Source: Candidatus Berkelbacteria bacterium (lineage in GTDB: Bacteria; Patescibacteriota; UBA1384; 2-12-FULL-50-11). From it: a stretch of 57,267 bases of DNA. The DNA is taken from positions 1 through 57,267 of the forward strand of contig JANLIQ010000056.1 in NCBI GenBank assembly GCA_024654065.1, read 5' to 3'. Shown piece by piece: positions 3,368 through 57,190 of the stretch. Every line of letters begins with the position of its first letter. Position 1 is the first letter of the stretch. Under the pieces are notes generated by a model. It had not been told where the DNA came from, searched no databases, and was given only the letters and a program-made list of their open reading frames with translations. The position numbers and the translations under genes were made by a program.

Positions 3368-3814
3368 ATGAAATCTATTGCTTCCAACAAAAAGGCGTAT
3401 TTCGACTACTCAATTACAGACGACGTGGAAGCCGGGCTAGTTTTGACGGGCGAAGAAATCAAAGCCATTCGCGACAAACGAGTTAATATTAGCGGGAGCT
3501 ATGTCAAACCGTTCATCGCCGATGGCGCTAATGAGCTTTGGTGGGTGGGTAGTAATTTTAATATCGAGAATGGCGATCAATCACGGAGTAAGAAACTTTT
3601 GCTCCATAAGATAGAGATCGAACGGTTGACTGGTAAACTCTCGGCCAAAAACCTGACGATCGTACCGCTGGAATTATATTTATCTCGGGGTCGAGCTAAA
3701 CTCAAAATTGGCTTGGCCAGTCGCAAGCAAGTTCATGACAAACGGGAAACTCTCAAGAAACGAGACATCGAACGGGAAGTTGCTCGCCGTCTTAACGATC
3801 GAAGTAAAAAGTAA
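3368..3814 (+). CDS. smpB: SsrA-binding protein SmpB
   Basis: 148 aa with KKAYFDYSI, GEEIKAIR, KLLLHK and a basic C-terminal tail, the typical SmpB pattern. A tmRNA gene is also present in this window. Confidence 0.9.
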   Translation: MKSIASNKKAYFDYSITDDVEAGLVLTGEEIKAIRDKRVNISGSYVKPFIADGANELWWVGSNFNIENGDQSRSKKLLLHKIEIERLTGKLSAKNLTIVPLELYLSRGRAKLKIGLASRKQVHDKRETLKKRDIEREVARRLNDRSKK

Positions 3815-3815
3815 C

Positions 3816-4715
3816 CTAAGGAGAGTCTGAACTGGTAGAGTCGTCGCTTACAGTTTCTTTTAGTAGGTCAATCTCGTCGCGGGCAGCCGATAGACTGCTC
3901 TTAGCTGCTTTAAGAGTGGTCTTGGCAGCGGCAAGGTCGGCTTTGTAAGTAGTAGCACCCGGGTTATTTGCGATCTTTTTGTACGCCGCGTAAGCAGACT
4001 GGGCTTTCGCCTTAGTGTCCGCTAAGAGTGCTTCAAGCTTGGTGGTGTCCAGTCCGTCAGCTTTGAGTCGCGTTACAATCGTCGCCAATTTCCCCTCCAC
4101 CAAGCCAACTATCTTGTCGGATATGCACATACCACGAACTGCTGGCAACACGGCGATATAAACATGGTTTTTGCCGATGATATCGTCACTGATCTTTGTT
4201 CTGATGCTATCGACGGTTTGGAGCGTAATCGCTTCGGCCTGATCTTTCTCCAACCGAGTAATGACAGCGTTGATTGCAGTAACTGCTTCAGCTTTCGCCG
4301 CGGCACGACAGTTTTTGGTGTGCTCACCTGACTGTAACTTTTTCAATACCTCTAATCGACCCTCAGCTAATTCTTTAGCTAGCTCCCGAGATTTTTCAAG
4401 TTTTTTATCTTCTTTGGCTGTTTTAGCTTCTTCTAAAAGTTTTTTATAGTTCTCGCGCGATGTTGAACGTTCGGTCTTAGCCTTTTCCCGAAGCTCCTCT
4501 GCTGCTTTAATCTTTATTTCCCGCTGTTTCTTGGCTTTTTCCAACAAAGCTTCTTGGGCTTTCTTTTGTTCTTCTGACTGTTCGTTCGAACCAGAACTTG
4601 AATTCCCATCCTCCGCACTCACGTAGACCATGGGCGTCACCAACAAATTACCCACAATAAGAAAACTTAAACCAAATAATCCCAGTTTTTTCATTTTAAA
4701 AATTAACTGTGTCAT
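3816..4715 (-). CDS. Secreted Ala/Lys/Glu-rich coiled-coil protein (hypothetical)
   Basis: 299-aa ORF with an N-terminal signal/TM segment (LGLFGLSFLIVGNLLV) followed by low-complexity helical K/E/A-rich sequence. It is last in a same-strand string behind 5048-5419. Confidence 0.5.
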   Translation of the reverse strand: MTQLIFKMKKLGLFGLSFLIVGNLLVTPMVYVSAEDGNSSSGSNEQSEEQKKAQEALLEKAKKQREIKIKAAEELREKAKTERSTSRENYKKLLEEAKTAKEDKKLEKSRELAKELAEGRLEVLKKLQSGEHTKNCRAAAKAEAVTAINAVITRLEKDQAEAITLQTVDSIRTKISDDIIGKNHVYIAVLPAVRGMCISDKIVGLVEGKLATIVTRLKADGLDTTKLEALLADTKAKAQSAYAAYKKIANNPGATTYKADLAAAKTTLKAAKSSLSAARDEIDLLKETVSDDSTSSDSP

Positions 4716-5031
4716 CTTCGGATCCTTCGTCAGCCTCTATTTCGCTTAAATCGTTGTCAATGTCGTCTAGTGCGGCAAGAATCTCAGTCTTGGCTTCGGT
4801 TATTGGACTGAGAGTATTGGTCGGCGCTGTCGTCGCCACCGGTTCAGGTGTTGCTGATTTGGAATTAAAGTAAACCCAGCTGATAGCACCTGTAATCAAC
4901 AGCAATGCTAGGACGGCAATAAAAATAGACAGCGCCGTCGAAGCAGGTTTTTCAGTCTTTGGTTCGGGGAACATAATAATATGTTGGCTTGTTGCTGAGG
5001 CCCTGTCAACATACAAGCCAACATATCTCAA
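4696..5031 (-). CDS. Small single-pass membrane protein (hypothetical)
   Basis: Has one strong TM helix (LSIFIAVLALLLITGAISWVYF) and an acidic C-terminus. The true start may be the internal Met at 4974. Confidence 0.45.
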   Translation of the reverse strand: MRYVGLYVDRASATSQHIIMFPEPKTEKPASTALSIFIAVLALLLITGAISWVYFNSKSATPEPVATTAPTNTLSPITEAKTEILAALDDIDNDLSEIEADEGSEDDTVNF

Positions 5032-5047
5032 GTCTAATGTCTGAAGT

Positions 5048-5419
5048 CTAAAGTTCGATTTTTTGTAATTTCCAGCTCAAGGTGTCTTCGTTTTTGGTTT
5101 GATAATCGCCGGCGCCAACCTCGGCTGGCTGCCCATTGATTTCAAATGCCCAAAAATGAGTGGCTGGCGCTTTGACCCCGTCAATCGATTGCACCATCTC
5201 ACCGAAACTAAATGATTGCGTTTCAACCTGGTGGCTAGATTTCAAAAGCTCTAAAGCGTTTTGACCTTCAACCCCCCGGTAACTAATCTCACATTTCTGC
5301 TCCAACTGCGCAATCTCGTTGATCGGGTTGCATAAATTACGATCAGGCACAATCAGCCACAAACCAAAGGCCAGAACCAATACTCCAATCACATAAATCC
5401 AATTCGGTCGTCGTTGCAT
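5048..5419 (-). CDS. DUF4430-like (transcobalamin beta-domain-like) membrane-anchored protein
   Basis: N-terminal TM helix followed by ...FGEMVQSIDGVKAPATHFWAFEINGQPAEVGAGDYQTKNEDTLSWKL, the DUF4430 pattern. I moved the start to ATG 5419, which has GGAG 8 nt upstream. The tracked TTG at 5437 lies inside the terminator U-tract/RBS. Confidence 0.65.
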   Translation of the reverse strand: MQRRPNWIYVIGVLVLAFGLWLIVPDRNLCNPINEIAQLEQKCEISYRGVEGQNALELLKSSHQVETQSFSFGEMVQSIDGVKAPATHFWAFEINGQPAEVGAGDYQTKNEDTLSWKLQKIEL

Positions 5420-11864: not shown

Positions 11865-11937
11865 CGCGCCCGGCAGGGGTCGAACCTGCGACTTTGTGCT
11901 TCGAAGGCACACGCTCTGTCCACTGAGCTACGGGCGC
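11865..11937 (-). tRNA. tRNA-Arg (anticodon TCG)
   Basis: Hand-folded cloverleaf: GCGCCCG/CGGGCGC acceptor, GCTC..GAGC D-arm, anticodon arm TGTGC-CTTCGAA-GCACA, T-arm GCAGG-TTCGACC-CCTGC. No encoded CCA. Confidence 0.9.
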
Positions 11938-13699: not shown

Positions 13700-13772
13700 G
13701 GTGCTAGTAGCTCAGTGGTAGAGCAATCGGTTGTGGTCCGATTGGTCGCAGGTTCGATCCCTGTCTAGCACC
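13700..13772 (+). tRNA. tRNA-His (anticodon GTG) with genomically encoded G-1
   Basis: G-1 followed by GTGCTAG/CTAGCAC acceptor stem and C73. Anticodon arm ATCGG-TTGTGGT-CCGAT, T-arm GCAGG-TTCGATC-CCTGT. Confidence 0.9.
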
Positions 13773-21468: not shown

Positions 21469-21542
21469 CGCCCCCGGCAGGATTCGGACCTGCGACCTAG
21501 CGGGTAGAAACCGCTCGCTCTAATCCACTGAGCTACAGGGGC
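21469..21542 (-). tRNA. tRNA-Arg (anticodon TCT)
   Basis: GCCCCTG/CGGGGGC acceptor stem (one G-U pair), anticodon arm AGCGG-TTTCTAC-CCGCT, T-arm GCAGG-TCCGAAT-CCTGC. Confidence 0.9.
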
Positions 21543-27669: not shown

Positions 27670-28058
27670 TGGTGGAGCTGGCGAGAGTCGAACTCGCGTC
27701 CGAAAACAAACGAACCAAATCTTCTACAAGCTTAGACAGTTTACTTTTCTTAGATGGCTGGAATAGAAACAGACAAAATTTCCAGTCATAGCATCATCTT
27801 AATCTTGTGAATGGGCCGATGAGAACCCAAACGCTACCCTACGATTATGACGCTTCGCTGTTTTAGTAGAGATCAAACAGGGAAACGGTACTGGTGTTTA
27901 GGCCAATACTGGTTGAGCGACGAAGCTACCAAACGCGTTTGCTACAGTAGCTTTGACTTTGCTCATAACGTTTGCACGTATTTTTTTGTACTCTAAGGCA
28001 GGTACTCTCCGCTTGCAAATTTGGTTGTTAAAGTTCCCGTCGAAGCCATTACAGCCCC
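27670..28058 (-). ncRNA. ssrA: tmRNA (SsrA), tag reading frame 27898-27975
   Basis: The 5' end GGGGCUGUAAUGGCUUCGACGGG pairs with the 3' end ...GGACGCGAGUUCGACUCUCGCCAGCUCCACCA (tRNA-Ala-like acceptor and T-arm). An A-rich run then GCA AAC at nt 84 resembles the E. coli resume context. The tag ORF encodes ANVMSKVKATVANAFGSFVAQPVLA-stop. Confidence 0.85.
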
Positions 28059-32019: not shown

Positions 32020-32091
32020 TGGGCGACGAAGGAATCGAACCTTCAACCCCGGCTACGTCAAAGCCGTGCTCTACCATTGAGCTAGCCGCCC
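32020..32091 (-). tRNA. tRNA-Val (anticodon GAC)
   Basis: GGGCGGC/GTCGCCC acceptor stem, anticodon arm CGGCT-TTGACGT-AGCCG, T-arm GAAGG-TTCGATT-CCTTC. No encoded CCA. Confidence 0.9.
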
Positions 32092-33038: not shown

Positions 33039-33112
33039 GGTCCCATCGTCTAGTGGCCTAGGACGTCGCCTTTTCATGGCGAAGATCGCGGGTTCGACTC
33101 CCGCTGGGACCG
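33039..33112 (+). tRNA. tRNA-Glu (anticodon TTC)
   Basis: GGTCCCA/TGGGACC acceptor stem, anticodon arm TCGCC-TTTTCAT-GGCGA, T-arm GCGGG-TTCGACT-CCCGC. Confidence 0.9.
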
Positions 33113-50485: not shown

Positions 50486-53074
50486 CTAGCCTAGGTGATG
50501 TGTGGCGTTTATTAATCCACACTGTTTGTACTTATATGGTCTCTTTGTTGCTGGATTCACCGCGCCACAAGGGCATGGATCGTTACGGCCAACTTTTTTA
50601 CTATGTCCAAGCGCAGTTGCTGACGGTTCAGAAGGGTCGTTAGTTATCAGTTGCTGTGGGGTTTTCTCGACTTTAACTGGTTCGTTACTCTCTATTTGGG
50701 CACGAAGCAGCAAGTCGACAATCTGGGTATCAACTGCCCCTTGGAGCTGAAGAAAGATATCATAGGCTTCGCGTTTATACTCAACAATCGGCTCTCTTTG
50801 GCCGTAACCACGCAAACCAATACTTTCACGCAGCGCCTCCATCGTTTTCAGATGCTCAATCCACATCGTATCTATAATTCGCAAACTTACTGCCCTCTCA
50901 ACATCGAGCTGAAGTTCTTTTGGCCAGGAATCATATTTCTGCTCATAGGCAGCTTTCTGTTCAGGATTCATAAGTGAGGTTAATTCGTCATGTAACACAG
51001 CCGCTTGATCAGGCTGGGTTCTTACGATCCGGTCTCGACGACGATAAATTGCTTCACGATGCTTATTCATTACGTCGTCGTACTCAACCAACTGTTTACG
51101 AATATCGAAGTTGTGGGTTTCTACCTTGGTTTGTGACTGTTCGATCGCTTTTGAAAGAAGAGAGTTATTGATACTAACATCATCTGGAATCTTAAGTCTC
51201 TCCATCAAACTCTTCATCTTTTCGCCACCGAAGATACGCATCAAATCATCATCCATCGAGACAAAGAACTGGCTAACACCAGGGTCTCCCTGGCGACCAG
51301 CTCGACCACGTAGCTGATTATCTATACGACGAGATTCGTGTCTTTCTGTTCCAATAACGAACAATCCACCGAGCTCAACTATTTGTTCGTGGTCAGTTTC
51401 CCATTTCTTGAATTCCGACTTTCCTTTGTCGTTTGAAGGTGGTTGTCCGCCCAAAATAATGTCCACCCCTCGGCCAGCCATATTTGTTGCAACCGTTACG
51501 CCACCAAGTCGTCCCGCTTCGGCAACAATCGCGCCTTCTTTTTGATGGTGCTTAGCGTTTAGGACTGTGTGGTTAATCTTTGCTGCTTTTAAGTATTTAG
51601 AAATCTTTTCAGATTTTGCGATTGAAACAGTTCCAACTAAAACTGGCTGCCCTACCTCGTTTAATTCTTTGATAAGGTTTGTAGCAGCCTGGAACTTAGC
51701 ATCTTCTGTCTTAAAAATAACATCTTGGCGATCTATTCGAACCAGAGGTCGGTGGGTTGGAATAGTGACTACCTCCAAACTGTAGATCTTAGAAAATTCC
51801 TCCGCTTCAGTTACTGCAGTACCAGTCATACCTGAAAGCTTGGCGTAAAGCCGGAAGTAATTCTGAAAAGTAATTGTAGCTAACGTTACAGACTCTTCTT
51901 GGACCGAGACACCTTCTTTTGCCTCTATGGCTTGGTGCAGGCCTGCGGAGTAACGACGGCCGTGAAGCATTCGTCCAGTGAATTCATCAACAATGATAAT
52001 CTCTCCATCCTTAACAACGTATTCTTTATTTTTATGGTAAAGAGTATATGCCTTTAGCGCTGAGTCAACGTGATGAACAAGCTCAACGTGCTCTGGCGCG
52101 TAAAGGTTTTCGATCCCGATTAACCCCTCTAGCTTTGTAATGCCTTCGCTTGTCAGGGAAGTGGCATGCGCCTTCTCGTCAACCGTAAAGTCAATTTCCG
52201 GTTTTAACTTACTAACAGTTTGGGCAAACTTGGCGTAAAGCTCCCCTGACTGAGAGCTTGGAGCTGAGATAATTAAAGGGGTTCTAGCTTCGTCGATTAA
52301 AATAGAGTCAACTTCATCGACGATAGCATATACTAACTCCCTTTGAGAAAGCTGACTCACAGATTGGGTCATATTGTCTCTCAGGTAGTCAAATCCAAAC
52401 TCGTTATTTGTACCGTAGGTAATATCTGCTCGGTAAGCTTCCTGTCTAGAAACTTCCCGGAAACAACGTAAGCGTTCGTCGCTTTCTCCGTTGTCGTGTG
52501 TTGGATCGTATATATATGAGAACTGCGGACCAATAACACCAACCTTCAGTCCCAGAAGCGAGTAGACTGGCCCTATCCAACCAGCGTCACGTCTAGCTAG
52601 GTAGTCGTTTACCGTTACTAGATGAGCACCCAGACCCGTGAGCGAATTAAGGTATAAAGGTAGGCTCGCTACTAGCGTTTTACCTTCACCCGTTTTCATT
52701 TCTGCGATCTGTCCTCGATGCAGAACCGCCCCTCCAAGAACCTGTACGTCGTAATGCCGCAAGCCTATTGCTCGTTTAGCTGCTTCACGCACCAGAGCAT
52801 AAGCATATGCTTCCTTTGGAGCCAATAACTCACTGATGACTTTCTTTCGCTCTTTGTTACGTTCCTGTCGATCATCAATCGCATTTGTTTCAGATATAAT
52901 CTCTGATGCCGATGCAGAGATAGTGCTCTTGAGTTCAGTAGATAATTTCGTTAGCTCAGAATCTGCAATAGACTCAAACTGACTCTCTAAAGAATTAGTC
53001 TCATCAACAACGTTCTGGTAACGACTAACCTCTTTTTTGTTGGCATCGCCAAACAGGCGCTCTAGAAAAGACAT
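50486..53074 (-). CDS. secA: Preprotein translocase ATPase SecA
   Basis: 862 aa with motifs MKTGEGKT, DEVDSILIDEARTPLIIS, TGMTGTA and NMAGRGVDI, and a C-terminal zinc-binding tail (CPCG...C). Confidence 0.97.
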   Translation of the reverse strand: MSFLERLFGDANKKEVSRYQNVVDETNSLESQFESIADSELTKLSTELKSTISASASEIISETNAIDDRQERNKERKKVISELLAPKEAYAYALVREAAKRAIGLRHYDVQVLGGAVLHRGQIAEMKTGEGKTLVASLPLYLNSLTGLGAHLVTVNDYLARRDAGWIGPVYSLLGLKVGVIGPQFSYIYDPTHDNGESDERLRCFREVSRQEAYRADITYGTNNEFGFDYLRDNMTQSVSQLSQRELVYAIVDEVDSILIDEARTPLIISAPSSQSGELYAKFAQTVSKLKPEIDFTVDEKAHATSLTSEGITKLEGLIGIENLYAPEHVELVHHVDSALKAYTLYHKNKEYVVKDGEIIIVDEFTGRMLHGRRYSAGLHQAIEAKEGVSVQEESVTLATITFQNYFRLYAKLSGMTGTAVTEAEEFSKIYSLEVVTIPTHRPLVRIDRQDVIFKTEDAKFQAATNLIKELNEVGQPVLVGTVSIAKSEKISKYLKAAKINHTVLNAKHHQKEGAIVAEAGRLGGVTVATNMAGRGVDIILGGQPPSNDKGKSEFKKWETDHEQIVELGGLFVIGTERHESRRIDNQLRGRAGRQGDPGVSQFFVSMDDDLMRIFGGEKMKSLMERLKIPDDVSINNSLLSKAIEQSQTKVETHNFDIRKQLVEYDDVMNKHREAIYRRRDRIVRTQPDQAAVLHDELTSLMNPEQKAAYEQKYDSWPKELQLDVERAVSLRIIDTMWIEHLKTMEALRESIGLRGYGQREPIVEYKREAYDIFLQLQGAVDTQIVDLLLRAQIESNEPVKVEKTPQQLITNDPSEPSATALGHSKKVGRNDPCPCGAVNPATKRPYKYKQCGLINATHHLG

Positions 53075-53077
53075 TAG

Positions 53078-54289
53078 TTAAATTCGCCAATGCCGAGGCA
53101 AATTAACGGTGCCATCCGGACGTTGGTTGTTTTCAATATATGAAATTAGTAGTCGTTCAGTTGCTAATGTCCCATTAAGAGTGTGGGCTAGCTTCTCCTT
53201 ACCATCCTGAGCGCGATATTTGATACTAAATCTACGGGATTGAAAGTCGGTACAATTACTTGCTGAATGTGTTTCTCGGTATCGTTTCTGAGAAGGGAAC
53301 CACGCTTCAATGTCATATTTCTTGGCCGCAGTTGGCCCTAAGTCCCCGCTACCAATTAGTATCTTTTGGTACGGTAGCCCTAACTTCTTAACAAAGCTTT
53401 CCTCCATAGAAACTAGAAATTCGTGTTCTTCAGCTGATTGTTCGGGAGTTGTTACAGACACCATCTCGACCTTGTCGAATTGATGCTGGCGGAACATTCC
53501 CTCGACGTCCTTACCATACGAACCGACCTCACGACGAAAACAGGTGGAAAAAGCGACTAAACGTATTGGCAATTCTTCTTCTCTGAAGGTTTTGTTAGCA
53601 AAAAGGGCGAGAAGAGTTTGTTCGGAAGTGCCGGGTAGAAGTAGCTCATCTCGTTCAACTTTGAAGAAGTCGTCTTTAAGAAACGGTAAGTAACCAGCCT
53701 TCTCAAGTGTTTCGGCCTTTGTCATCACTGGCGGAATAACAGGGGTGAATCCGTGACTGACAGCCATTCTCAAAGCTTCTCCCATTATTTGCAAGTGGGC
53801 CCAGGCAGCATTGCCTTTTAAATAACGATAGCGGGAACCAGACCAATCTGCAGCGGTTTTAAGATCGAGCCAACCTGCTTTAGTCATTAATTCGTGGTGC
53901 GGTCGTCCTTCCGCTAAACGAATTTTACCCACAGTCTCTACGACTTTGTTTGCAGACTCGCCCTCACCTACCGGCACATCATCACTCACTAGATTCGGTA
54001 AGGAGAGCAGGGCGCTTTTTGCGAGACTTTCTGCCTTCTTGAGATCCTCTTCAATAATGGAAATTTTTTTGTTAATTTCCTTAGCCTGCTTTAGAACGGC
54101 TGGAGTTGGCTTACCACCGCGACTAAGGGTATTTTTTTTGGCCCGGAGTGGCTCAACATCAGCCATTAGAGAACGCCACTTGGTATCAAGCTCAAGATAT
54201 TTAACAATTAGTTTCGGGTCCTCGCCGCGTTTGGTCAGCGACTCTTTAACAATCTCGGGATGTTGACGCAATAAATCACGATCAATCAT
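53078..54289 (-). CDS. serS: Seryl-tRNA synthetase
   Basis: N-terminal coiled-coil arm (MIDRDLLRQHPE...) and a class II core (FRRE, GSGDLGPTAAKKYDIEAWFP, NGTLATER). I prefer the Met at 54289; the tracked start at 54325 adds 12 non-conserved residues. Confidence 0.93.
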   Translation of the reverse strand: MIDRDLLRQHPEIVKESLTKRGEDPKLIVKYLELDTKWRSLMADVEPLRAKKNTLSRGGKPTPAVLKQAKEINKKISIIEEDLKKAESLAKSALLSLPNLVSDDVPVGEGESANKVVETVGKIRLAEGRPHHELMTKAGWLDLKTAADWSGSRYRYLKGNAAWAHLQIMGEALRMAVSHGFTPVIPPVMTKAETLEKAGYLPFLKDDFFKVERDELLLPGTSEQTLLALFANKTFREEELPIRLVAFSTCFRREVGSYGKDVEGMFRQHQFDKVEMVSVTTPEQSAEEHEFLVSMEESFVKKLGLPYQKILIGSGDLGPTAAKKYDIEAWFPSQKRYRETHSASNCTDFQSRRFSIKYRAQDGKEKLAHTLNGTLATERLLISYIENNQRPDGTVNLPRHWRI

Positions 54290-54440
54290 GCTGGTAGTGT
54301 ACCAAACCCCCTCCTGAAACGCCAAGGGTTGAACGATACAATCACACAGTATATTGAGTAAATACGATTAGCTAAGCTATTTTATCAACTTGAACAAACT
54401 CACATGCCCTAGATAGCCGATATAAGCAGCAGAAATATAC

Positions 54441-55496
54441 TTATAGCCGCGGTGCGATTTCTTTAACCTTTTGCGTCAACTTGTGCGAATCAGCGTGTCC
54501 GATGTGACCTAAGTACGAGGGTAGGGCCTTTTCGATATCTTCCGCCAAATCAGTTTTAAGTCTCTTTAACATCCGCTTAACGGTCTTCCGACGCGGTAGG
54601 CTGTAACGAGGGAGGGCGATATAGCCAACAAAGTCGATTCCTTGGGAGAGTTTCCGCAAAGAGACTTTATTCGGGTGGATTTGCAGTTTTAATCGTTCTT
54701 TAAGAAATAGGTTCAACTCGACCAAGCAGCCAAGCAGATAATCCGGATCGGTCGAGAGAATCACAAAGTCATCAGCGTAGCGTAAGTAGTATTTAATTCT
54801 TAGCTCATGATTCACGAACTTATCAAGCGGGTCCATGTAGACGTTTGCAAAAAGCTGACTCGTTAGGTTCCCAAGTGGCATTCCTTTGCCGGACGAGAAA
54901 TGAAAACTCTCAATAATTAGCTTTAACAATTGCAGCAGTCGCTCATCCGCAAGCCGTTCTCGTAATAGTTCTAACAGAACTTCATGGTCGATCGAATCAA
55001 AGAATTTTTTAATATCCATTTTGATTGCCCAGCAGGGACGAGTGTAATTGCCGCTAACCTCCCGGCTGAAGACAGCTACTCGCTCAAAAGCTTTGTGTGT
55101 ACCTTTGCTGTCACGGCAGGAATACGAGTCGAAAATGAAAATTTTATCAAAAGCCGTGTAGAGTCTTTGGTAGATGGCCTGATGGAGCAAACGGTCGCGG
55201 ACCGGCGCTTTGCTAATCATCCGCGACTTTGGATCGGTAATGCGAAACTGCTGATAACCGCCAGGTCGGTATATTCCGTTTTCCAAATCTTCATGAAGTT
55301 GAAAAACTTTGTCTTCAAGGCGAAATTCAAATTCTTGAATATCAGGTTTGCTCCGTTTGCCTTTCCGATAGTTCTTCCAGGCTAAGAATAGATTGTCTAA
55401 AGAGATAATTTGTGCAAAAGTTCCCTCATGGAACAAAACCCGGCTTTTAAGCCCCCCCCCCAACGGAATTTTCTCCACAGGGGAGATTCCGATCAT
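54441..55496 (-). CDS. DGR-type reverse transcriptase
   Basis: RT motifs are IKMDIKKFFDSIDH (motif 2/A), GMPLGNLTSQLFANVYM (the DGR-diagnostic [I/L]GxxxSQ motif) and YLRYADDFVILS (YxDD). There is no maturase/X or endonuclease domain. It is adjacent to the TR/VR pair. A possible alternative TTG start is at 55436. Confidence 0.9.
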   Translation of the reverse strand: MIGISPVEKIPLGGGLKSRVLFHEGTFAQIISLDNLFLAWKNYRKGKRSKPDIQEFEFRLEDKVFQLHEDLENGIYRPGGYQQFRITDPKSRMISKAPVRDRLLHQAIYQRLYTAFDKIFIFDSYSCRDSKGTHKAFERVAVFSREVSGNYTRPCWAIKMDIKKFFDSIDHEVLLELLRERLADERLLQLLKLIIESFHFSSGKGMPLGNLTSQLFANVYMDPLDKFVNHELRIKYYLRYADDFVILSTDPDYLLGCLVELNLFLKERLKLQIHPNKVSLRKLSQGIDFVGYIALPRYSLPRRKTVKRMLKRLKTDLAEDIEKALPSYLGHIGHADSHKLTQKVKEIAPRL

Positions 55497-55815
55497 CCAA
55501 AAGCTCTACGAGTTCCAACTGGAGTTGCATACTTGCGTTATTTCCTTTCCTAAAGTTGATAAGCACACCCTTGGCCAACAGCTTCAGACTAAAACCCTCC
55601 AGTTGATCGAGACAATTTTCCTAGCCAGTCGTCAGACGGTCGACACCAAGAAAGGCACCCTGCTTGAGTCAAACAGTCAGCTCGACCTACTGAAACTATT
55701 AGTTAGAATGAGTGCCGATATCAAAGCCCTAAATCAGAAGAAGTATATGTTATTGCAAAGAATGCTTCAAGAAGTTGGTAAAATGCTTGGTGGATGGCTC
55801 AGAAGCCTAGACTAA
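55393..55815 (+). CDS. avd: Avd-like accessory variability determinant (four-helix bundle), encoded on the opposite strand to RT/TR/VR
   Basis: ...IIQKLYEFQLELHTCVISFPKVDKHTLGQQL...LDLLKLLVRMSADIKAL...LLQRMLQEVGKMLGGWLRS parallels Bordetella phage bAvd (FPK/IPRKH..., ...EVGRILGSWI). The conserved core starts at about 55480, where there is no ATG/GTG/TTG. The only ATG (55393) makes a 104-nt head-to-head overlap with the RT. Confidence 0.7.
   Translation: MSKEIICAKVPSWNKTRLLSPPPNGIFSTGEIPIIQKLYEFQLELHTCVISFPKVDKHTLGQQLQTKTLQLIETIFLASRQTVDTKKGTLLESNSQLDLLKLLVRMSADIKALNQKKYMLLQRMLQEVGKMLGGWLRSLD
55452..55461. repeat. Homopolymeric tract C10 (+ strand) / G10 (- strand)
   Basis: Counted directly: gCCCCCCCCCCaacgg. 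It encodes LGGG in the RT frame (codons 12-15) and SPPPN in the long avd frame. Confidence 0.95.
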
Positions 55816-55843
55816 CCAAAACTCCCCGCGATCAGGCGGGGAG
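55814..55843 (-). terminator. Hairpin plus U-tract immediately 3' of TR (terminator-like; possible TR-RNA 3' structure)
   Basis: Minus-strand CUCCCCGC-CUGAUC-GCGGGGAG followed by UUUUGGUU. It begins 13 nt after the end of TR/VR homology and also lies just past the avd stop codon on the other strand. Confidence 0.5.
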
Positions 55844-55855
55844 AAACACTGACAG

Positions 55856-55989
55856 TTGCGGCAGAACACCAGACGGTAGTTGCCATTCCAGACATTGTCC
55901 GGGTTGGCATAGTTCCTGTTGACCCACGAACCGTTGGAATTGCGTTCAACGTTGAGGACGTTCAGGTTGCCGTTAGCGTCCGCTTTGTG
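55856..55989 (-). repeat. DGR template repeat (TR)
   Basis: This is the invariant, adenine-bearing copy. Its minus-sense pseudo-ORF is Asn-rich (ADANGNLNVLNVERNSNGSWVNRNYANPDNVWNGNYRLVFCR). The tracked ORF 55807-56028 is this repeat, not a gene. Confidence 0.9.
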
Positions 55990-56215
55990 AGAAGCGCCAT
56001 CTGTATCCACTGCCCTGAGTCCGTACACTGGGGCTGTATTTTATGCGGCATTCAAATGCCAGAGCGCCTCACACCAAGTATCATATGTTTTTTAGGTTGT
56101 CTCGCGTGTCACACTGCTACAAACCTTGGTCTGCAGCACTCTGGATCGTAACGAGTTCCTAGATTCGGTAGCGGGCAGCCGTAACCGCCTGCGTATTCAC
56201 CTAATACCGCTGGTT

Positions 56216-56243
56216 ATTGTAGCTAAAAGTATCGGTAGATCAA
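56216..56243 (-). promoter_or_regulatory. Possible promoter for the TR transcript
   Basis: Minus-strand TTGATC-16 nt-TACAAT, located just after the target-gene terminator and about 225 nt upstream of TR. Confidence 0.3.
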
Positions 56244-56251
56244 GGAAGCTC

Positions 56252-56291
56252 AAAAAAAATATATGAAGAAGGCCGCGCAAGCGCGGCCTTC
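56252..56291 (-). terminator. GC-rich hairpin (10-bp stem, 4-nt loop) plus U-rich tract downstream of VR
   Basis: Minus-strand GAAGGCCGCG-CUUG-CGCGGCCUUC followed by UUCAUAUAUUUUUUUU. It lies 53 nt 3' of VR. It is the terminator of the target gene and a candidate DGR target-recognition hairpin. Confidence 0.65.
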
Positions 56292-56340
56292 GGGCAAAGC
56301 CCAAGAACACAAGAAAGTACAAGGTGCCAAGCCGCAAGAC

Positions 56341-57033
56341 TTACTTGCGGCAGAACACCAGACGGTAGTAGCCACTCCAGACAATGTCCGGGATGGCATA
56401 GTTCCCGTAGACCCACGAACCGTAGGAATAGCGTACAACGCTGAGGACGATCAGGTCGCCGTAAGCGTCCGCTAAGGGTTCGGAAACGACGATCCGCCAC
56501 TCGTCCATCGGCTGATCGGTGTACTCGCGGCGAAGCTGCAGAGCAGTCTCGTCGGGGCACTTACCGAAGCCGAACTCGTCGAGCTTGGCGTAGATGTCGC
56601 TGACCTTGGCTCCGTTGGGGAAACCCAACTCGGCGACCGTCGCCGTATACAGATCGAGCTTGCGCTCCTCTGTCTCAACGGTGAACAACTTGTTCTTGAC
56701 GACCTCCTTCGCCCAATCGGACAGCTTGTGACCTTCGGTTTCGACGGTCTTCTGCAAATCCTTCTTGTTCGGGTGGGTGCCAACGGTAATGGTCTTCCAG
56801 GCCGGGCGCTCGCTGAATGCGAGAACTTCGGCGCGCTTGGTAGCGCGGGCTTCGAACAGCTTGTAGAGTTCCTCGACAAAGTCGGGATCTCCCTTCACCA
56901 ATTCAAGCTTGGCAAGGCCGCCGGGGTACTTGAGCGACGCGTCTTCGACGATGCGTCCCATGTGCTTGGCGAGGCCGTCAGAGACGGGCTTGAATTCGGA
57001 AGTTCCGGGTGTAGTTGAAGTAGGCTGAGACAT
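56341..57033 (-). CDS. DGR target (variable) protein, VR at the extreme C-terminus
   Basis: GC-rich ORF. The preferred start is ATG 57033 (AAGGAG upstream), giving 231 aa with no signal peptide or TM helix. The C-terminus is ...ADAYGDLIVLSVVRYSYGSWVYGNYAIPDIVWSGYYRLVFCRK-stop. Confidence 0.85.
   Translation of the reverse strand: MSQPTSTTPGTSEFKPVSDGLAKHMGRIVEDASLKYPGGLAKLELVKGDPDFVEELYKLFEARATKRAEVLAFSERPAWKTITVGTHPNKKDLQKTVETEGHKLSDWAKEVVKNKLFTVETEERKLDLYTATVAELGFPNGAKVSDIYAKLDEFGFGKCPDETALQLRREYTDQPMDEWRIVVSEPLADAYGDLIVLSVVRYSYGSWVYGNYAIPDIVWSGYYRLVFCRK
56345..56478 (-). repeat. DGR variable repeat (VR)
   Basis: Aligns to 55856-55989 at a 489-nt offset. The 16 mismatches are all TR-A to VR-T/G/C in the minus sense, and the other 118 positions are identical. 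Confidence 0.9.
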
Positions 57034-57161
57034 CTCAGGTAGCTTCTCCTTGCGGTTTATATTCCGCGGTTGAGGCCAACTCACTATTGAGATGGACTGC
57101 AAAGAATTAAGTTATTATTTCTCTGAAGTCCACCTCAATTATTTGTTAATTTACTTGCCGA

Positions 57162-57190
57162 ACTATACCACAATCTATCGAGAAAGTCAA
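57162..57190 (-). promoter_or_regulatory. Strong sigma-70-like promoter of the DGR target gene
   Basis: Minus-strand TTGACT-17 nt-TATAGT with an extended -10 TG (TGGTATAGT), about 130 nt upstream of ATG 57033. Confidence 0.5.

Follow-up and report, generated by a model that had tools for sequence, protein, structure and literature searches.

The retroelement and its genes

The window analysed here is the whole 57,267-nucleotide (nt) stretch of contig JANLIQ010000056.1 from the Candidatus Berkelbacteria assembly GCA_024654065.1. Positions 54441-57190 hold a diversity-generating retroelement (DGR) with three parts on the minus strand, i.e. the gene for a reverse transcriptase (RT; 54441-55496), a template repeat (TR; 55856-55989) and a target gene of 230 amino acids (aa; 56341-57033) that carries a variable repeat (VR; 56345-56478) at its 3´ end. 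The accessory gene avd (55393-55815) is located on the plus strand, opposite to the RT, the TR and the target, divergent from the RT and convergent with the TR. All parts that define a DGR were found intact (a DGR-type RT, Avd, a TR/VR pair and a gene that carries the VR at its 3´ end), and we put the probability that this is a genuine and complete DGR of the type known in Candidate Phyla Radiation (CPR) bacteria, i.e. of Architecture B3 and DGR clade 2, at nearly 90%. It typifies a clade that is already common in CPR bacteria; a possible novelty lies in the conserved, self-contained structured RNA, outside Rfam, in which its TR is embedded.

TR and VR align without gaps at an offset of 489 nt (134 positions, 16 mismatches, 88-90% identity). 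At every mismatch the TR shows a T on the plus strand, i.e. an A in the minus sense, and the VR shows A (11), C (4) or G (1) on the plus strand. The TR contains 37 adenines in the minus sense, of which 43% differ in the VR, as against none of the 97 non-adenine positions (hypergeometric P for all 16 mismatches on adenines = 6.3e-11); the last homing event would thus be recent relative to the background mutation rate. An independent repeat search returned the same pair over 129 nt (55856-55984 and 56345-56473), and no further VR-like copy was found in the window. Read in the frame of the target, the mismatches occupy codon position 1 (8) and codon position 2 (8) and never position 3, 15, 20 and 2 of the TR adenines fall on codon positions 1, 2 and 3, respectively, and 12 codons are AAY. 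The TR can recode 19 codons, corresponding to about 1e19 protein variants, and the variable columns among 39 homologues aligned over the full target length coincide with adenine-containing TR codons. The initial annotation of this DNA had aligned the two copies by hand (134 positions, 16 mismatches, all at TR adenines), had counted about 37 adenines with roughly 40 percent diversified and had assigned the VR to the last approximately 45 codons of the open reading frame (ORF) 56341-57033. The computed alignment reproduces these values (44-45 codons for the VR) and shows no mismatch at any non-adenine position.

Relatives of the element were collected in two ways. A genome scan using a 15-sequence subset of the target alignment yielded 17 loci, nearly all of them from Patescibacteria, and a metagenome scan using the RT alignment yielded >537 relatives, 80 of which were kept (this collection was made by RT similarity and not by target). 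Adenine-specific TR/VR pairs were identified with a simple DGR scan in loci L001, L004, L009, L010, L011 and L015. The module of TR, inverted avd and RT is constant across loci, with avd opposite to the RT in 64/64 related loci having both genes, and the target may move or flip (L009).

The RT gene was annotated as an ORF of 351 aa starting from an ATG at 55496 (Pfam RVT_1, 8e-27). Its true start is probably the TTG at 55436 (331 aa), because the match to bRT, the RT of phage BPP-1, begins at residue 23 and because the frame upstream of a G10 tract at the 5´ end is unconserved with L001. The best PDB match is bRT itself (8ub7, E 1.9e-45), and the best group II RT in the same search (1.4e-22) follows 23 orders of magnitude behind. 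The motifs PLGNLTSQLFANVYM and RYADDF are present, LGNLTSQ aligns to IGSLTSQ of bRT and YADD to YMDD, and every position that is invariant in a 5-way RT alignment is retained. NCBIfam holds no DGR RT model, and its Drt models score far below their cut-offs; the assignment to the DGR lineage draws on profile scores, PDB matches and motifs.

In principle, the two copies might stem from an ordinary partial gene duplication that happens to lie beside an unrelated group II intron or retron RT, and the top NCBIfam RT model is indeed a group II intron RT/maturase (TIGR04416, 2.5e-40). The score of this model (138.7 bits) is nevertheless far from its cut-off of 300, the retron RT model reaches 50.8 of the 235 bits needed, and Rfam shows neither a group II intron RNA nor a retron RNA in the window. 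A duplication would also have to produce adenine-only divergence by chance (P = 6e-11), beside a dedicated Avd gene, with an RT whose nearest solved relative is bRT by so wide a distance, and in a module that recurs in dozens of loci. We therefore regard this scenario as extremely improbable.

The product of avd is recognised by Pfam bAvd (PF22296, 1.1e-20, residues 34-138) and by NCBIfam DivGenRetAVD (5.5e-23; 81.3 bits, the cut-off being 80). In the target protein, a disordered N-terminus precedes a three-helix domain (residues 19-74) and an alpha/beta variable domain (77-230), and its homologues start with MSQ or MCQ at the same ATG. By inspection it has neither a signal peptide nor a hydrophobic segment and looks cytoplasmic. 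No significant match was obtained against Pfam, NCBIfam or the PDB as sequence profile, and ten longer homologues sampled from the family showed no Pfam domain either. Searching the target profile against 1.84 billion representative proteins gave 6104 clusters (50% identity) at E <= 1e-3; this family shares mainly the C-terminal ~155 residues, and some of its proteins carry the domain twice. AlphaFold2 models the target with a predicted local distance difference test (pLDDT) score of 92.9 over the full length and 97.4 over the C-terminal domain. In the predicted topology, three or four variable beta-strands come after two beta-alpha-alpha units, and the VR maps onto three beta-strands of the model. 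Weak Foldseek matches of this model are mostly C-type lectin domains (TM-scores 0.35-0.5), and no solved DGR variable protein appears in the top 50 matches; the model thus hints only weakly at a C-type-lectin-like fold. A binding function of the target is assumed by analogy with other DGR variable proteins. CPR organisms are thought to live attached to other cells. With more than 6000 clusters, no Pfam entry and no significant structural neighbour, the target family may provide a new scaffold able to tolerate hypervariation.

Several observations weigh against our reading of the locus. First, avd lacks a canonical start codon where its homologues predict one: homology begins at about 55489, and the sole in-frame canonical start is the TTG at 55393, which adds 31 non-conserved residues and overlaps the 5´ end of the RT. 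Second, TR and VR agree in each of their last 25 nt, leaving no difference of the IMH/IMH* type (initiation of mutagenic homing, IMH) within the repeat; given this identical IMH-like 3´ segment, flanking sequence must distinguish donor from recipient. Third, a GC-rich hairpin or cruciform at the end of the VR (GCCGCAAG-TAAGT-CTTGCGGC, 56331-56351; 8 bp, stop codon in the loop, -13.3 kcal/mol as folded DNA including a 5-bp outer stem), which has no counterpart at the TR end, is near-identical in L001 and present as a 6-bp version in L004, could not be retained as a conserved feature, as it is absent in L010 and L011; such a hairpin after the VR is found in 34% of DGRs only (Wu et al. 2018, PMC5758913). 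Fourth, the target protein stands alone in its cluster at 90% identity, and ongoing diversification is something we infer. Finally, Foldseek searches of the target model against PDB and BFVD gave nothing at E <= 1e-3 (best match 8oks_B, 0.059).

The first and the fourth of these points would fit a DGR that was recently inactivated or is dormant, e.g. after loss of the avd start codon: no ATG, GTG or TTG lies near the start of Avd homology apart from the distant in-frame TTG, and VR variants of the target are not in the protein database. Against dormancy stand the intact RT motifs with all invariant positions kept, three RNA modules that score 112, 80 and 85 bits (R1, R2 and R3, see next section) and the lack of any non-adenine difference between TR and VR, which speaks for recent homing. 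Moreover, the avd gene of L001 shows the same non-canonical start context, and several relatives likewise have no canonical start upstream. The avd gene may accordingly have kept a conserved non-ATG start instead of having decayed; the options are ATT 55486 and ATC 55492, both following a GGGGAG Shine-Dalgarno sequence, and TTG 55393. Inactivation is improbable, and we continue to treat the element as a complete DGR.

A structured RNA around the template repeat

To judge by its sequence, the spacer between VR and TR is not junk, and the TR appears to lie in a roughly 390-nt RNA with an extended -10 promoter and a terminator hairpin. Conserved blocks were taken from a spacer alignment of six loci, helices were predicted with RNAalifold (which returned helices with many compensatory changes on these 6 loci), and three covariance models, R1, R2 and R3, were built from them.

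R1 describes the core leader domain (55987-56095, minus strand; window match 55978-56095, 112 bits). In 5´ to 3´ direction it comprises an A-rich stretch with the 5´ strand of helix P0 (56090-56081), the motif UACUUG, the 5´ strand of P1 (56074-56063), the P2 hairpin (56060-56047), an A-rich junction, the P3 hairpin (56038-56008), a single-stranded segment beginning GUGG and, directly against the TR, the 3´ strand of P1 (55998-55987). The model has 57 matches, all on the RT strand, whose ends lie at a median distance of 551 nt upstream of the RT. Among the 61 loci with enough upstream sequence it was found at E < 0.01 in 48, and five more showed a weak match at the expected place. R3 (56152-56232, minus strand; 85 bits; 42 matches) covers a -10 element, TACAAT (56221-56216), and a 5´ hairpin domain (56208-56161). 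Upstream of this hairpin an extended -10 of the form G-n-T-A-n-A-A-T is conserved (G in 39/42, T in 42/42, A in 41/42 and the final T in 42/42 loci), and a promoter scan also reports the -10 site at 56221-56216. R2 (window match 55812-55884, 80.1 bits; 46 matches) combines the 3´ end of the TR with the P4 hairpin (CUCCCCGC-CUGAUC-GCGGGGAG, 55818-55843, minus strand) and the UUUU run behind it. P4 resembles an intrinsic terminator and would form the end of the TR transcript; in a terminator scan it scores as such on the minus strand only.

The helices are documented by covariation. Compensatory changes were found in 21/26 pairs of R1 (329 cells versus 83 in shuffled alignments), in 11/14 pairs of R3 and in 7/7 pairs of R2. 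The proportion of paired cells is 94.7% in R1 (74.1% shuffled, 31-55% with slid partners), 95.9% in R3 (77.9% shuffled) and 96.3% in R2 (78.2% shuffled), figures from which something has to be deducted, as the alignments were fitted to the covariance models and this inflates the percentage paired, though not the number of pair types. P0 connects the leader with the nucleotides right behind the TR: the leader consensus AAAUGAAGA (56090-56081) pairs with UCUUCAUUU, the 9 nt following the TR (55852-55844), where the window reads UCAGUGUUU (55844-55852, minus strand). P0 shows 24 compensatory cells versus 6.7 +/- 2.1 in shuffles, and cognate duplexes are more stable than permuted ones (-6.1 versus -4.0 +/- 0.26 kcal/mol; 0/2000 permutations as good). 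An unbiased mutual-information scan of the leader against the region 3´ of the TR revealed only the named helices and the P0 diagonal, and the minimum-free-energy fold of the window RNA alone recovers P0-P4 (z = -2.8). The linker between R3 and R1 ranges from -7 to 127 nt across loci and appears to be a variable insertion site of the RNA; in the window (56096-56151, minus strand) and in L001 it holds a hairpin that is absent in L004.

An alternative view would place these structures outside the DGR RNA, as an independent small RNA or as a cis-regulatory leader or terminator of the target gene. The link between leader and DGR is drawn from sequence, the 5´ hairpin domain is located just downstream of the target terminator, and R1 and R3 are parted by the variable linker, all of which such a view would accommodate. 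It does not explain, however, why loci gathered by their RT carry the modules on the RT strand at a set position (R1 at a median of 551 nt before the RT, 48/61), nor why, in six loci, the TR-VR homology borders on the 3´ strand of P1. P0 pairs the leader with the nucleotides directly after the TR, with compensatory changes, which puts leader and TR on one transcript. Furthermore, in L009 the target is located elsewhere and on the other strand, and the RT-avd-TR module is kept. We consider an origin of the structures outside the DGR quite unlikely, if anything more so than dormancy, and treat leader, TR and P4 as parts of one RNA.

The position of P1 also bears on the limits of mutagenesis. TR-VR homology starts 0-6 nt past P1 in six loci. 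In the window, the outermost mismatch (55988; CAC in the TR, CCC in the VR) probably lies outside the mutagenised tract, judging from sequence conservation in the target: Pro186, encoded by the CCC codon of the VR, is nearly invariant in the 39 homologues and the next residue (AAA in the TR) varies, which would place the start of the mutagenised tract at the base of P1. Thus, 15/16 mismatches can safely be attributed to mutagenesis, and the truly mutagenised tract probably extends from 55986 to about 55859. At the other end, CGCAA marks the limit of the TR-VR homology; the family conserves the final Lys codon, and P0 starts after another 3 nt. A pairing of the leader UUG with the CAA at the TR end was considered as well and lacks covariation (UA in 40 loci, CG in 1; G:C changed to G:A in 9/41 loci). 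Being conserved without covarying, it is kept as a hypothesis only.

Rfam 15 contains no relevant family, neither at the gathering threshold for the whole window nor at E <= 10 for 55700-56400; the sub-threshold matches near 56268-56291 are all terminator-driven. In the literature we searched, no structured leader RNA, promoter or terminator is described for the CPR clade, although a leader RNA of this kind may already have been noted.

Comparison with known elements and a proposed mechanism

In its gene architecture the element does not differ from known CPR DGRs. Architecture B3, TR-(avd)-RT, makes up 90% of the CPR DGR set (Wu et al. 2018, PMC5758913), and DGR clade 2 is cellular, restricted to Patescibacteria and typically has targets without transmembrane or known domains (Roux et al. 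2021, PMC8144416). The window shares the gene order with inverted avd, the host group, the chromosomal location and the C-terminal VR in a small target lacking a transmembrane segment or a known domain. The initial annotation had correctly recognised a complete DGR with RT, Avd and TR/VR pair, all of them present and intact, and its DGR-type RT with YADD and LGNLTSQ is borne out by the bRT match and the aligned motifs, the group II intron and retron RT models scoring far below their cut-offs. Its view of the locus as a special system overrated its rarity, since the arrangement is the standard one in CPR bacteria (PMC5758913; PMC8144416). It was right about the presence of Avd and missed both the inverted orientation of avd and the structured RNA in the 350-nt VR-TR spacer. 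Taken alone, the locus is one more well-formed example of an abundant CPR clade and changes little.

The prototype DGR of phage BPP-1 (mtd-avd-TR-brt) shares with the window a homologous RT (IGxxxSQ, YxDD) and Avd, a TR of about 134 nt, adenine-specific mutagenesis at AAY codons, a GC-rich hairpin after the VR and a duplex of about 12 bp directly upstream of the TR. In BPP-1, synthesis of complementary DNA (cDNA) stops at an 11-bp duplex just upstream of the TR, the avd:Sp 'cPRT Stop', and the primer and the protein-binding RNA elements are located 3´ of the TR (bioRxiv 10.1101/2023.10.23.563531). These elements, i.e. the primer and the RT- and Avd-binding sites, reside there in the spacer RNA (Sp) of roughly 140 nt. 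In sharp contrast, only about 35 nt (the P0 strand and P4) separate the TR from the inverted avd in the window, and the structured RNA lies 5´ of the TR. Further differences concern the IMH, which equals IMH* in the window, the cellular host and the target, which is no tail fibre and does not significantly match C-type lectin structures of the Mtd type. The RNA is not a member of the BPP-1 type (Rfam RT-10/Sp), as no Rfam match was obtained at E <= 10. Weinberg et al. (2017) described the motifs RT-1 to RT-19, RT-10 being the TR-RT spacer of BPP-1 (PMC5737381). Like the RNA of the window, these are conserved structured RNAs beside bacterial RT genes, at least one of them within a DGR RNA; they differ in that no Rfam 15 family matches 55700-56400 at E up to 10 except for terminator-type noise. 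The variable proteins of C-type lectin fold (Mtd, TvpA, TaqVP, AvpA) also have a C-terminal VR in which alternating residues are variable, and the target of the window differs from them in TM-scores of at most 0.5.

What is known of DGR mechanisms stems almost entirely from one phage element, which has its RNA determinants 3´ of the template. In B3 elements the space 3´ of the template is filled by the inverted avd, so that priming and stopping are so far unexplained there. As a tentative answer, which we think rather unlikely to hold in full, CPR-type (B3) DGRs may use an uncatalogued RNA of ~390 nt whose scaffold lies 5´ of the TR and which would represent a circular permutation of the BPP-1 RNA. 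A shift of the scaffold to the 5´ side is proposed because only about 35 nt follow the TR. By analogy with the phage RNA, the 12-bp P1 might correspond to the cPRT-Stop duplex, P2 and the A-rich junction to the stop stem-loop and its A-minor adenosines, P3 and the conserved single strands to the RT-binding elements and P4 to the Avd-binding stem-loop. The invariant leader UUG beside P1 could pair with the CAA at the TR end in the manner of a template:primer duplex; the template base that comes next is a G, like TR G117 in BPP-1. P0, in turn, might hold together two ends that the phage RNA joins covalently.

In the mechanism that we propose as part of our main reading of the element, a stand-alone non-coding RNA of ~390 nt would be transcribed from the minus strand, from about 56210 to 55818, between the -10 element at 56221-56216 and the terminator at 55843-55822. 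It would fold into a 5´ hairpin domain, a three-way junction (P1-P3) and the long-range helix P0, with the 12-bp P1 ending exactly at the TR start and the TR (131-134 nt) looped out between P1 and P0. RT and Avd, expressed from the divergent head-to-head genes, would bind this RNA, as expected from their homology with the bRT-Avd complex. The RT-Avd complex would copy the TR into cDNA with misincorporation opposite adenines, synthesis presumably starting near the TR 3´ end and stopping at P1. The cDNA would then replace the VR by retrohoming, for which the 25 identical 3´ nt and the VR-only hairpin may serve as guides. In this way up to 19 codons could be rewritten on three beta-strands of the compact C-terminal domain of a soluble protein. 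The covarying helices provide a model that can be mutated and tested (TR looped between P1 and P0, promoter, terminator), and the three covariance models could help to locate DGR RNAs and the limits of TRs when CPR metagenomes are annotated.

Surroundings of the element and related loci

The 5´ ends of avd and the RT meet head to head at a 10-nt poly-C/poly-G tract (55452-55461), which sits in a region of roughly 55 nt between the probable starts of the two genes. The tract is also 10 nt long in L001, and L011 has G7 at the equivalent place. Phase variation at this tract was considered and rejected: both tracts (window and L001) have the same length, the offset in frame derives from an extra T beside the tract, and the idea was dropped because the upstream extension does not represent a conserved coding sequence. 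The tract may act as a Shine-Dalgarno-like element or as a promoter spacer, or may have no function. In L009 (about 2112-2140) the ATG codons of avd and the RT stand back to back (CATATG) with zero intergenic DNA, which places the promoters of avd and the RT inside each other's coding sequence.

The target gene has the highest GC content in the window (58%; third positions 76%, with A3 0.08 and C3 0.47), as compared to 43-45% in the two adjacent ORFs, the RT and avd, the last two lying at 43-44%. L001, L004 and L010 show this contrast as well, and L011 does not. The target module may have been replaced horizontally, or its codons may be under selection. A chimeric assembly was rejected as the cause of the GC jump, as both repeat copies and the conserved spacer lie on one contig and the pattern recurs in L001. 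As read from sequence features, the target gene would be followed by a terminator hairpin, GAAGGCCGCGC-UU-GCGCGGCCUUC, with a U-rich run (56268-56291, minus strand). On the upstream side of the gene, a promoter-like site (57162-57190, minus strand) consists of TTGACT, a 17-nt spacer, TG and TATAGT; this consensus match is the top match of the promoter scan (10/12 consensus positions).

The element is encoded by a cell, and its host belongs to the Patescibacteria, as in other CPR-type DGRs: NCBI records the target protein from a metagenome-assembled genome (MAG) of Candidatus Berkelbacteria. The window contains a transfer-messenger RNA gene (27670-28058, minus strand, 152 bits) and five tRNA genes (11865-11937, 13701-13772, 21469-21542, 32020-32091 and 33039-33112), an ordinary chromosomal content that confirms a cellular genome. 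From their translations alone, the neighbouring ORFs 50486-53074 and 53078-54325 are taken by us to encode SecA and seryl-tRNA synthetase, respectively, the latter (as read from its translation) directly adjoining the DGR cassette.

Among the related loci, L005 (4213-4686 and 5785-6081) and L009 (about 3500-4160 and 5001-5375) contain paralogous target pairs, and in L009 it is the paralogue encoded opposite to the TR whose VR matches the TR. Six proteins of the target family (P0040, P0047, P0049, P0051, P0052 and P0055; 360-480 aa) show two stretches matching the profile, i.e. tandem variable-type domains. Target homologues in L006, L012 and L017 are located on MAG contigs labelled Acidobacteriaceae and Gammaproteobacteria; these are either mis-binned CPR contigs, or the family has spread beyond the CPR. 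In L001 (3007-4934), the closest of the related loci, the cassette adjoins a large serine recombinase (Resolvase/Recombinase/Zn_ribbon_recom) and an ORF of 109 aa, a neighbourhood hinting that a DGR cassette can ride on a mobile element.

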